From an uncultured Chlamydiae bacterium (GTDB lineage Bacteria; Chlamydiota; Chlamydiia; Chlamydiales; JAJFMB01), in contig CAVOJR010000001.1 of the NCBI GenBank assembly GCA_963696295.1, positions 1,472,001 to 1,536,000 of the forward strand: 64,000 nt of DNA, read 5' to 3'. Position numbers and translations under genes: made by a program. Positions within the stretch are counted from its first letter, which is position 1. The number at the start of each line of letters is the position of its first letter. Of the stretch, positions 8,054 to 19,858 are shown in pieces. The notes under the pieces were generated by a model. The model ran no database searches. It was not told the DNA's origin and saw only the letters and a list, made by a program, of their open reading frames with translations.

Positions 8054-8970
8054 GCCGTATATCCCTCCATGACGCCGCGCTATTGTTGAAAAGGGGGGAA
8101 GTCGTGGCTGTTCCGACCGAAACGGTCTATGGACTGGCGGCCTCTTTACACTATCCTGAAGCCATTGATCGCATTTACACCCTCAAGAAGCGCCCTTCGG
8201 ATAATCCTTTGATCATACACATTGCCGATGCTGCCCAAATATTTGCCTTCACCGATGATTTTCCGCAAGGGTTTGAGAAAATTACCTCTCTCTTTTGGCC
8301 TGGATCGCTTACCATTGTGCTGCCCGTAGACGAAAGCAAAATCCCCTCCAGAGCCCGTGCGGGGCTGCCCACGGCCGCCTTCAGACTCCCCAAACACCCC
8401 TTGACCCAAGAGCTCATCAGACAAACCGGCCCTTTGGTAATGCCTTCGGCCAATTTGTCGGGAAAGCCCTCCGGAACCACTCCCGGCCACGTTGAGGAGG
8501 ATTTCGGCTGCCAATTTCCTGTTCTGGATGGCGGCGCATGCGAGCGGGGCATAGAATCGACCGTCATTCGCTTTAGCGGGCGCTGGGAAATTATCCGTCA
8601 AGGCTGCCTTTCAGGAGAGATGTTGAGCGAGGTTATAGGCTATTTGCCTCTCATTTCCAAAAAAAGCGAGAAGCCCGTTTGTCCGGGCCAAATGTATAAG
8701 CATTACGCGCCGAACGCCAAATTGCACCTCACAGGCCATTTTGAACAAGATCGCGTCATCGTGGGCTACAACGGCCGTTCTTATCCCAACTCCAAAAGGG
8801 TTTTTCTGTTAGGAGAAGAGCCGATGCAGATCATGCAAAATCTCTATGGGGTCTTAAGAGATCTGGACCGGGAAGGCATTGTCGAGGCTTTTGTCGACAT
8901 AAATATCCCTGAAAACGGCTTATGGAGCACCATTAGAGAAAGATTACAGCGAGCTGCGAATTCGAAATGA
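8050..8970 (+). CDS. sua5: L-threonylcarbamoyladenylate synthase (Sua5/TsaC with C-terminal domain)
   Basis: PTETVYGL, KKRPSDNPLIIH, PSANLSG, PGQMYKHYAP. Confidence 0.92.
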   Translation: MSRISLHDAALLLKRGEVVAVPTETVYGLAASLHYPEAIDRIYTLKKRPSDNPLIIHIADAAQIFAFTDDFPQGFEKITSLFWPGSLTIVLPVDESKIPSRARAGLPTAAFRLPKHPLTQELIRQTGPLVMPSANLSGKPSGTTPGHVEEDFGCQFPVLDGGACERGIESTVIRFSGRWEIIRQGCLSGEMLSEVIGYLPLISKKSEKPVCPGQMYKHYAPNAKLHLTGHFEQDRVIVGYNGRSYPNSKRVFLLGEEPMQIMQNLYGVLRDLDREGIVEAFVDINIPENGLWSTIRERLQRAANSK

Positions 8971-9800
8971 TTTATCCAAAAATTGATACTTCTGTAGAAA
9001 AAATTGCGGCTCATTACAATACTTTTTATGGCATCTACCGCGAGTTGTGGGGGGAGCATCTGCATCACGGCTTTTGGCAAACGGGGAGGGAAACGGTCGA
9101 GGAGGCCACGGTCAATCTCTTGCATGAAGTGGTGAAAAGAGGGCAAATCACTAGCGGGATGAGTATTTGCGATGTGGGATCCGGTTATGGGGCTACCGCC
9201 AGATGGCTTGCCGAGCACTGCCAGGCCAAGGTCACCGGGCTCACCATCTCCGAAAAACAGTACCGGTTTTCAGTCGCCCAAGGGGGGGCCCGCTTCATCT
9301 TGCGAGATTTCCTTGAAAACACTCTGCCCGCCAATGCCTTTGATAGGGTTCTTTCCATTGAAAGTTCCGAACATATGATCGATAAGGAAAAATTTTTTCA
9401 GGAGGCGAACCGCCTTTTAAAACCGGGCGGAAAACTGCTCATCTGCGCCTGGCTTTCTAGCGAGGATCCCTCGCAATGGCAGATCGATCATCTTCTGGAA
9501 CCGATTTGCAGCGAGGGGCACCTGCCTTCACTTGGTTCGATGGAGGATTACCGCAGGCTCGCAGAAGATGCGGGATTTTCCAGGATCGATGCCGTTGATA
9601 TCAGTCAAAATGTGCAAAAAACTTGGGTCATCTCCATTTACAGGGCAATGAAGCATTTTCTTTGCAACAGCGCTTTCAGAAGGGAATTCTTTCATGCGGA
9701 GGCCCGGGACAGGCGGTTTCTCCTGACGCTTTTCCGTTTGCGCGCGGCTTTTTTCCTCAAGTGCTTCCGCTATGCCATTATGACGGCTGAAAAGCGTTGA
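8967..9800 (+). CDS. Class I SAM methyltransferase, tocopherol/sterol methyltransferase-like
   Basis: WGEHLHHGFW, DVGSGYG, SIESSEHM..K, LKPGG. Confidence 0.85.
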   Translation: MIYPKIDTSVEKIAAHYNTFYGIYRELWGEHLHHGFWQTGRETVEEATVNLLHEVVKRGQITSGMSICDVGSGYGATARWLAEHCQAKVTGLTISEKQYRFSVAQGGARFILRDFLENTLPANAFDRVLSIESSEHMIDKEKFFQEANRLLKPGGKLLICAWLSSEDPSQWQIDHLLEPICSEGHLPSLGSMEDYRRLAEDAGFSRIDAVDISQNVQKTWVISIYRAMKHFLCNSAFRREFFHAEARDRRFLLTLFRLRAAFFLKCFRYAIMTAEKR

Positions 9801-9825
9801 AATAGTTCGCTCCTCTTGGTAAGAT
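9797..9825 (+). promoter_or_regulatory. Putative promoter of the type III PKS operon, probably leaderless
   Basis: TTGAAA-17 bp-TAAGAT, then 7 nt to the ATG at 9833. No SD sequence. Confidence 0.5.
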
Positions 9826-18641: not shown

Positions 18642-18901
18642 AGGAACACCATAGTAAAAAGAACATTTATATAGAGGGAACGGGATTTTTGCCATCAGTT
18701 TGTGGCGTTTTTTCCCCTTGATTTGCATCGTTATAAACTGGCATAATAACACCCTTTATAATTGAATTCCTTAACTATCAACGAAATAGGTTTTTTGATT
18801 GATAAAAGTAGTGGCCAAAAATGAGCGGATCATTATTAAAGGAATTAGCAGTATTTAGTTGGGTTTTTGTATCTAATTGATTGATAAATAGATAGGATAG
18901 C

Positions 18902-19858
18902 ATGGCAGGTTTTAGACCATTTACACCTTTTCCGGGATTGGCGAATCCCCACCTCCAGACCGTAATCGGCGCGATGGTGGGCTGGTATCGCGAGCCCGCC
19001 TCCCGCCATGATCAGGTGCAGCTCCCCGACGGCGACAAGCTCTCCATCGTCACCTCCACTCCGGCGGGATGGCAGTCCCATCAGCCTACAGTGATCATGA
19101 TGCACGGCCTTTGCGGCTCTTCCCTCTCCTCTTATATGCTGCGCGTGACGAGAAAATTGTCCTCGGCGGGCTACCGGGTGGTGCGGGTGAATCTGCGCGG
19201 CTCGGGCCATGGGAAGGGATTGGCGGAGAAGCCCTATCACGGGGGAGTCAGCGATGACTTTTTCCAGGTGTTGCGGAGAGTCAAAGAGGCGCAGCCAGAC
19301 TCGCCCATAACCATGATCGGCTTTTCCTTGAGCGGCAATATTTTGCTCAAACTCTCAGGGGAGATGGGAAGGGAGTTTGAAAGATATGTGGAAAAGATTA
19401 TCGCTGTGTGCCCTTCCGTCGACTTGAAAGATTCCGCCTTCAGGCTGCAAAATAAGGAAAATTTGCTCTATAGGAAGACTTTTCTGGACACGATCATCCA
19501 ATCGGTAGAGAAGAGAAAAAACGGCTACCGTCCGAAGAAATCGCTGAAATCATGCGCCAGCCTGATCGATTTTGATAATCTTTTTACCGCCCCTCTTTGG
19601 GGATTCGAAGACGCCTTTGATTATTACGAAAAATGCAGCTCCATAAAGTTAATTCCCCACATTTCCGTTCCCTGCCATATTTTATTCTCCGACGACGATC
19701 CGATCGTTAACGCTGATCCGGTTAAACAAATCAGGCTGCCGAAGAACATCGATTTGATGATCACGGAGCATGGGGGCCATATGGGCTTTTTGGGCCATCC
19801 TAAGTCCGGGGATTTTCATTGGATGGACTCTTTGATTTTTCACTGGGTACAGACTTGA
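18902..19858 (+). CDS. YheT-like alpha/beta hydrolase (esterase)
   Basis: NPHLQT, HGLCGS, GFSLSGN nucleophile, DDPIV, GGHMGF. Confidence 0.88.
   Translation: MAGFRPFTPFPGLANPHLQTVIGAMVGWYREPASRHDQVQLPDGDKLSIVTSTPAGWQSHQPTVIMMHGLCGSSLSSYMLRVTRKLSSAGYRVVRVNLRGSGHGKGLAEKPYHGGVSDDFFQVLRRVKEAQPDSPITMIGFSLSGNILLKLSGEMGREFERYVEKIIAVCPSVDLKDSAFRLQNKENLLYRKTFLDTIIQSVEKRKNGYRPKKSLKSCASLIDFDNLFTAPLWGFEDAFDYYEKCSSIKLIPHISVPCHILFSDDDPIVNADPVKQIRLPKNIDLMITEHGGHMGFLGHPKSGDFHWMDSLIFHWVQT

Follow-up and report, generated by a model that had tools for sequence, protein, structure and literature searches.

A type I and a type III polyketide synthase gene lie side by side in a chlamydial genome

The 64,000-nucleotide stretch of DNA analyzed here (the window) comes from an uncultured Chlamydiae bacterium (GenBank assembly GCA_963696295.1, here genome G000; contig CAVOJR010000001.1, positions 1,472,001 to 1,536,000) and lies within a 3.3-Mb contig. 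It carries a gene for a type I polyketide synthase (PKS), T1, next to the gene for a type III PKS, T3. A first-pass annotation had placed both in a row of six adjacent intact genes, and all six frames are open and intact at those places in the list of open reading frames (ORFs) and in Pfam and NCBIfam scans. On the plus strand, MT1 (8967..9800), a tocopherol-methyltransferase-like class I S-adenosylmethionine (SAM) enzyme, is followed by T3 (9833..10900; 355 amino acids), MT2 (10894..11580), a class I SAM methyltransferase that resembles PRK06202 below the cut-off, and an FAD-dependent oxidoreductase (11577..12620) assigned below the cut-off to the geranylgeranyl-reductase superfamily and a putative hydroxylase. 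T1 (12609..18638) is encoded on the minus strand and converges on the oxidoreductase gene with the annotated overlap of 12 bp (12609-12620), and a YheT-like alpha/beta hydrolase (18902..19858) follows on the plus strand. Hereafter, T3, MT2, and the oxidoreductase are called the trio, and the trio together with T1 the unit. A search of solved structures gave no match for MT2 and weak matches for the flavoprotein.

The longest T1 frame opens at GTG 18752 (12609-18752, minus strand); a start at ATG 18638, giving 2009 amino acids, is more likely because orthologues align from residues 1 to 5 of that frame. Pfam identifies a single reducing module of ketosynthase (KS), acyltransferase (AT), dehydratase (DH), enoylreductase (ER), ketoreductase (KR), and one acyl carrier protein (ACP), with no C-methyltransferase and, in agreement with the first-pass annotation, no thioesterase. 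The KS Cys/His/His, AT Ser, DH His/Asp, ER and KR nucleotide motifs, KR Tyr, and ACP Ser are all intact, and equally so in the 7 other full-length chlamydial orthologues aligned; an eighth orthologue, that of genome G277, is truncated. The full Cys-His-Asn triad ascribed to T3 was also found (C147/H280/N313) and is invariant in 40 of 40 aligned chlamydial T3s. The GC and GC3 (third-position) contents of the cluster match those of its flanks, and this lack of an offset speaks against a recent arrival of the cluster. A consensus-like promoter site precedes T3 (9797-9825); it is one of 29 such sites, against 13.9 expected, and is not used as evidence.

T1 orthologues are tied to one lineage of chlamydial T3s

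We searched for T1 orthologues in 399 genomes of the phylum, 80 loci of a collection, and 73 genomes of one chlamydial family. Orthologues (43 to 66% identical) occur in 4 of the 399 genomes, at 5 of the 80 loci (one of them G277 again, since L083 is the same contig), and in 6 of the 73 family genomes (five already found otherwise), for a total of 10 distinct T1 genomes: that of the window and nine other chlamydial ones. The closest relatives of T1 are labelled Parachlamydiaceae, Waddliaceae, or Chlamydiae, and G277 is listed in the same order as the genome of the window; both points support a chlamydial origin of the window. Strong T3 matches occur in 50 of 400 genomes, and these include all four T1 genomes of the phylum set. 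Within the 73-genome family, 44 genomes carry a T3, and the six T3s closest to that of the window (57 to 70% identity) are exactly those of the six T1 genomes, with no T1 orthologue in the other 38 T3-positive genomes. The genomes are kin and not independent, and the nominal P value of this co-occurrence is given no weight.

All 10 T1 genomes carry a single T3 lineage (nine by tree, and G434 by the sequence signature described below), and none of the 10 T1 orthologues is found without a T3 of that lineage. In a tree of 49 rows, the eight T3s from T1 genomes fall into a single clade (SH-aLRT 98); a six-member subset is recovered at 100/99 in a tree of 44 rows, and nine of them group together with P0066 in a larger tree of 203 rows. 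The 10 T1 KS domains also form a clade (100/99). In the KS tree and in the T3 tree alike, G000 is the partner of G370, and G221 that of G410, across family labels, and the T3s of G001 and G002, family relatives of the window genome, fall outside the T1-linked lineage. Distances between T1s and between T3s are strongly correlated (Spearman 0.92 in nine genomes, and 0.94 in eight genomes vs 0.20 and 0.28 with MutL). A full-length PKS of G443 (37% identity) was considered as an example of T1 without T3 and rejected, as its KS lies outside the T1 clade.

The pairing persists while the arrangement of the genes changes. The layout is convergent in G000, G370, G221, G277, and L081, and divergent in L084, G434, and L085 (G413); in the last, 7.6 kb separate T1 from the trio. 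In G410, T1 lies about 470 kb from the trio on the same contig, and in G289 the two are on separate short contigs. Far from never being syntenic in relatives, T1 and the trio are thus neighbors in 8 of the 10 genomes and occur together in all 10. The earlier proposal that a thioesterase-less T1 feeds T3 thereby withstands the synteny part of the refutation suggested with it; the first-pass interpretation as a whole is partly supported. None of the 10 chlamydial T1s is fused to a type III PKS. Judged from these comparisons, the conserved unit is the four genes of T1 and the trio, a putatively type I-fed version of a hierridin-type operon.

T3s linked to T1 share an entrance helix and a pocket residue

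Residues 30 to 43 of T3, within which an acidic helix spans residues 32 to 43, align to a chalcone synthase helix that presumably sits at the mouth of the coenzyme A (CoA) tunnel. This segment shows the largest excess of identity within the protein, with 63% identity over 36 pairs within the lineage vs 25% over 423 divergence-matched pairs. Asp32 is found in 10 of 10 linked T3s vs 3 of 40 unlinked ones, Ile192 in 10 of 10 vs 0 of 40, and Trp36 in 9 of the 10 linked T3s. The charge of the helix is −1 to −3 in linked T3s vs a mean of +0.65 in the others. The charge of the T1 ACP is 0 to −3, and that of AcpP of the window genome is −14. The signature is absent from seven newly found T3s of genomes without T1. 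Conversely, G434 was found after the signature had been defined; its T1 lies 124 bp from a T3 that carries it. We infer that the entrance helix and the starter pocket changed in the T1-linked lineage. Trp236, invariant in 50 of 50 T3s, aligns to a Gly of chalcone synthase and occupies what we take to be the position of ArsB Trp281, an assignment consistent with the ArsMB spacing in PMC13730376.

The trio is a known operon type that usually lacks T1

Among 60 relatives, 10 have a strong T3 match and none has a full-length T1 orthologue. We inspected 18 regions. The 10 with a strong T3 all hold T3, MT2, and the oxidoreductase (nine contiguous; one, L026 of G058, split by about 4.4 kb inserted between T3 and MT2), with no T1, YheT, or MT1 orthologue nearby. 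The remaining eight hold a distant T3 family. At seven loci (L029-L035), a second chlamydial type III PKS family, distant at 31 to 36% identity, has a different methyltransferase about 400 bp downstream in five. In the 73-genome family, the trio stands without T1 in 38 of the 44 T3-positive genomes.

T3, MT2, and the oxidoreductase are 33, 28, and 29% identical to the proteins of an operon of the planctomycete Paludisphaera (E = 1e-21 for MT2 and 3e-19 for the oxidoreductase). The planctomycete operon type makes alkylresorcinols from fatty acids, and its T3s, related to the chlamydial ones, give C15/C17 resorcinols from host fatty acids with no type I PKS (PMC10896814); Table 3 of that source records methylation and no hydroxylation. 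A survey of chlamydiae describes type III PKS clusters as widespread (PMC9666466), and its Data S10 gives hierridin and Entotheonella clusters as top MIBiG hits for 30 of the 48 type III PKS places covered here. Because of this homology and these matches, the trio is already known in kind, and it is common in chlamydiae, usually without a type I PKS; T1 is therefore an add-on in one T3 lineage.

The first-pass annotation had known of no characterized pathway of this kind in Chlamydiota. The trio had already been flagged as hierridin/Entotheonella-like in Data S10 of PMC9666466; of the T1/T3 pair, no description was found in the literature searched, a search whose reach excluded most subscription papers and bioRxiv supplements. 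No paper linking alkylresorcinol, or chalcone synthase plus Dictyostelium, to chlamydiae came up in that search. In the chlamydial table of biosynthetic gene clusters, "T1PKS" names just one stand-alone cluster and no T1/T3 pair.

The Cyanobium hierridin genes hidABC, the planctomycete operon, and Entotheonella cep likewise join a type III PKS, a class I methyltransferase, and an FAD oxidoreductase in one operon; identities were measured against the Paludisphaera operon, and HidA, HidB, and HidC are likened by description. As described, neither the hid nor the planctomycete operon includes a type I PKS, and both take fatty acids as starters, whereas the T3 lineage of the window goes with a reducing type I PKS and is set apart by its own helix and Ile192.

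MT1 and YheT stand outside the unit

The six genes do not form one unit, as had been proposed, since MT1 and YheT do not stay with T1 and the trio in other T1 genomes. No intact MT1 orthologue was found in the eight other T1 genomes searched; because a 57-residue MT1 remnant (54% identity) lies directly upstream of T3 in G289, MT1 may be at most an accessory, possibly an old one. MT1 was rejected as a regular partner of T3: it occurs in 11 of 399 relatives, in none with T3 within 1.5 kb and in none of the strong-T3 genomes. In the window, MT1 is preceded by sufBCDS and then sua5 (3448-8970, plus strand), and it could be read from the suf transcript because the stop of sua5 overlaps its start.

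YheT occurs in three of the eight other T1 genomes, each time on another contig, and was not found in the other five, including the closest, G370 (99% complete). As a general mechanism, YheT acting as the trans-thioesterase of T1 was rejected; YheT is present in 20 of 60 relatives, and inspection of 10 YheT regions revealed no cluster gene in any of them. In G001, a 67% identical YheT orthologue adjoins SodC and MsrB. From its distribution, YheT is best regarded as an unrelated neighbor. At L085:8888-9600 (G413), a frameshifted alpha/beta hydrolase unrelated to YheT is divergent from T1.

Elsewhere, the window encodes a phage-type integrase (1058-2116, minus strand), a 1577-residue Rhs/YD-repeat protein (23787-28520, plus strand), a 506-residue, possibly host-directed protein with a eukaryote-type tyrosine phosphatase domain (42404-43924, minus strand), and a chaperonin-like fragment joined to a zinc ribbon (54026-55411, minus strand), the last a putative frame overlapping aroD/aroE.

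Free-living relatives of T1 have other neighbors

Around free-living relatives of T1, we clustered 27 to 30 loci and scanned 15 proteins; on the chlamydial side, 60 selected neighbors were scanned. The free-living homologues are directly followed by a nonribosomal peptide synthetase (NRPS) of C-A-T-TE type, a FabH-like enzyme, an aminotransferase, or a 465-residue protein. This last protein, without a Pfam match and a candidate off-loader, follows T1 homologues directly at six loci (L087:16298-17695, L126:10025-11431, and four more) from five Verrucomicrobiota and one gammaproteobacterium, with a histidine kinase and a response regulator next in most. No T3 lies beside a non-chlamydial T1 homologue at any of 75 loci, and the T3s of five genomes with such homologues are distant (26 to 36%) or lacking. 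Among the neighbors scanned, the chlamydial T1 loci share none except the trio, and no acyl-CoA ligase, thioesterase, or acyltransferase is common to them.

T3 is related to the type III domain of Steely fusions

The best PDB match of the window T3 is the type III domain of Steely1 (E = 1.5e-67; next match, 1.4e-48), which is also the best by fold. Searches also brought up proteins in which type I and type III parts are fused, from Dictyostelia, Naegleria, and metagenomes, and three of them (P0043, P0045, and the Naegleria protein P0056) have the domain order KS-AT-DH-ER-KR-ACP-T3, the same as T1 followed by T3; related T3 domains come from Acrasis, Physarum, Soliformovum, and Rhodelphis. In the 44-row tree, one clade (98/93) unites 18 chlamydial with 10 protist-type rows (one of the latter unnamed); the outgroup consists of 16 mostly unlabelled rows from a profile search. 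The protist rows are monophyletic (100/99), and the type III domains of the six eukaryotic groups just named (P0049, P0056, P0010, P0080, P0096, and P0079) make up one clade that lies next to or inside the chlamydial T3 family. Monophyly of the chlamydial T3s is not rejected (p-AU 0.548), and therefore a sister position fits as well as nesting; chlamydiae are at most a candidate donor of the protist T3. Apart from these trees, P0002-P0009, P0037, P0041, and P0050 are multidomain proteins in which a type III PKS at the C terminus is joined to AMP-ligase, ACP, KS, AT, and methyltransferase domains, a non-reducing, Steely-like arrangement with one relative from Acrasis. A 4818-residue record with 12 type III PKS stretches (P0057), probably an assembly or construct artefact, was excluded from the trees.

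The type I side probably has another kinship. In the best trees, the T1 KS groups with free-living bacteria, apart from the Steely KS; forcing the two together costs 21.9 log-likelihood units (p-AU 0.076), and T1 is 31 to 33% identical to the fusions vs 35 to 44% to PKSs of free-living bacteria. A T1 that split off from Steely itself is thus not favored. Like the window pair, Steely1 (StlA) and Steely-type fusions have reducing type I domains ending in an ACP, then a related type III PKS; the window differs in having two genes on opposite strands, no C-methyltransferase domain, and bacterial tailoring genes. Because of the grouping of its KS, the chlamydial pair is regarded as Steely-like but not a member, and it seems to have arisen independently around a T3 family common to both. 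The product of Steely1, MPBD, is an alkylresorcinol. A bolder idea is that amoeba-infecting chlamydiae make an MPBD-like alkylresorcinol that mimics or disturbs polyketide signals of the host, and that a chlamydial symbiont was the source of the type III domain in Steely1 as well as in the fusions of Naegleria, Acrasis, Physarum, and Soliformovum; we regard it as speculative and improbable.

Comparison with other hybrid systems

The single, Mas-like T1 of 2009 residues scores 342 with PfaA, against a cut-off of 1010, whereas Azotobacter ArsA and ArsD reportedly form a two-protein, PfaA-like synthase. As is proposed for the window pair, the type III Cys of the ArsABCD system receives acyl chains straight from a type I ACP, and a Trp determines that resorcinols form (PMC6274091). 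ArsABCD has two T3s where the window genome has one, and the window has tailoring genes. In the cyanobacterial cyl, cab, and mer paracyclophane clusters, the assembly line is also ended by a stand-alone type III PKS, and there as well the T3s of hybrid clusters form a clade of their own (PMC8086630, PMC6836626). These clusters differ in being loaded with fatty acids, in having modules that are non-iterative, and in employing a halogenase and an alkylating enzyme. No loading by a fatty acyl-AMP ligase and ACP, no halogenase, no alkylating enzyme, and no two PKS modules were found in the window cluster or among the orthologue neighbors scanned.

Mycocerosic acid synthase (Mas/Pks2) has the domain order of T1 and is its best PDB match (E = 6e-300); T1 differs in scoring below the Pks2 cut-off (1127 vs 2400) and in having no PapA-type partner, and its AT motifs, GHSIG and IAYHS, are presumably not of the methylmalonyl type. 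Streptomyces SrsB is said to be a membrane-type (ICMT-like) methyltransferase, unlike the soluble class I SAM enzymes MT1 and MT2; the distinction from SrsABC is made by description. Hybrid type I/III polyketides have been called rare (PMC8086630).

A proposed route to a methylated alkylresorcinol

We propose that T1 builds a reduced acyl chain, which T3 off-loads and cyclizes to an alkylresorcinol; based on the comparisons above, we give this reading a probability of roughly 0.68. T1 would work iteratively, probably with malonyl-CoA, as we presume from the GHSIG and IAYHS motifs, and leave an unbranched acyl chain on its ACP. By analogy with the passage from ArsA to ArsB/ArsC, and given the genomic coupling, the chain would then move from the ACP to Cys147 of T3. 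T3 would add malonyl units and close the ring by a C2-C7 aldol condensation, as Trp236 suggests. As analogy with HidA/HidB and the planctomycete operon suggests, MT2 would then methylate the ring and the flavoprotein might add a hydroxyl group, so that the predicted product is a methylated alkylresorcinol lipid. Candidate roles named for the product in the first-pass annotation are an envelope lipid, an electron carrier, or a host modulator. Historically, an old chlamydial trio of the hierridin type may have acquired a type I PKS whose kin are found in free-living bacteria; all four genes would then have moved as a block between chlamydial families, and the helix and starter pocket of T3 would have changed.

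Several observations weigh against this reading. The trio lacks T1 in most chlamydiae. Block transfer alone would yield congruent trees and shared residues without a functional link in these 10 non-independent genomes, and shared descent alone could yield the lineage residues of T3; the MutL control is weak, as it is nearly saturated (most pairs 57 to 65% identical). In G277, a single deletion took the ER, KR, and ACP of T1 and most of the oxidoreductase gene and left T3 and MT2 whole. P0066, inside the T3 lineage, has Ile192 without the helix motif, and the fused protist T3 domains also lack that motif. An Arg or Lys five residues past the catalytic His has been tied to ACP use (PMC13730376, PMC7064976); that position is Ser285 in the window T3, and the Lys284 next to it is common to T3s without T1 and to Steely.

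The supply of phosphopantetheinyl transferases (PPTases) adds to these points. As annotated, the window has no PPTase (0 of 37 ORFs scanned). Both types are present elsewhere in its genome, AcpS at C1:2596640 and an Sfp-type enzyme at about 28.1-28.7 kb of C1; the latter lies with a LysE exporter ahead of a 5202-residue NRPS-PKS that ends in a thioesterase (C1, about 27.6-44.3 kb; L036, L196). In the eight other T1 genomes considered (G434 excluded), five have an AcpS-sized PPTase only, two an Sfp-sized one, and one none, and the Sfp of the window genome as query found no match in the five T1 genomes searched. Loading of the T1 ACP is therefore unexplained in the five genomes with an AcpS-sized PPTase only. 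AcpS loads type I fatty acid synthases in some actinobacteria. G001 has NRPS/PKS genes with a PPTase on C121.

Alternative explanations

T1 could have landed once beside an ordinary trio and hitchhiked with it, in which case T3 would still draw fatty acyl-ACP or acyl-CoA from fatty acid synthesis, and the lipid made by T1 would be a different one, set free by an acyltransferase or hydrolase encoded elsewhere. The 38 T1-less trios among the 44 T3-positive family genomes, the related planctomycete T3s that need no type I PKS (PMC10896814), and the survival of T3 and MT2 after the truncation of T1 in G277 are what one would expect in that case; a convergent or divergent layout also means that there is no shared transcript. 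Yet no T1 among the 10 has parted from the T3 lineage, even at a distance of 470 kb, the link outlasted the change from convergent to divergent layout, and the linked T3s have a conserved surface helix and a changed pocket. An alpha/beta hydrolase divergent from T1 at 2 of the 10 loci (the window and, frameshifted and unrelated, G413) could serve as such a releasing enzyme, but YheT itself was not found in five of the eight other T1 genomes, including G370. On balance, we consider hitchhiking unlikely.

Even less probable, in our view, is that T1 and T3 contribute to the same product but with no direct transfer between them; either the T1 chain would be released and re-activated as a CoA ester, or T1 would provide a second chain for esterification onto a phenol made by T3. 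Such wiring explains the co-retention as well as direct transfer does, and it fits the missing canonical ACP-binding cation at position 285 and the common use of CoA esters by type III PKSs (PMC7064976); against it, no acyl-CoA ligase, thioesterase, or acyltransferase is common to the loci scanned. T3 might also off-load the T1 chain as an alkylpyrone or acylphloroglucinol. Resorcinol synthases often yield pyrones in vitro (PMC7064976), the products of Steely enzymes can be resorcinols, pyrones, or phloroglucinols (PMC3188802, PMC12625978), and Ile192 alters the T3 pocket. Against this stand the Trp invariant in all 50 T3s at the resorcinol-determining position and the closest solved relative, Steely1, with its reported alkylresorcinol, and we hold such a product to be very improbable.

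Implications for chlamydial biology

What is new is the occurrence of T1 orthologues in ten chlamydial genomes, where by sequence they are tied to one T3 lineage. Hand-over from a type I to a type III PKS is known from few systems, namely Steely, ArsABCD, and the paracyclophanes. The chlamydial genomes offer a natural experiment, in which 10 T3s tied to a type I PKS stand against 40 near relatives without one and differ at a mapped helix and a pocket residue, so that recognition of the ACP by T3 becomes testable by swaps at these sites. The kinship of chlamydial and protist T3s bears on the origin of Steely1. If the hand-over from T1 to T3 is true, the pair would be a two-gene bacterial counterpart of the fused, signal-making Steely enzymes of amoebae, and it suggests a first class of small-molecule products for environmental chlamydiae.

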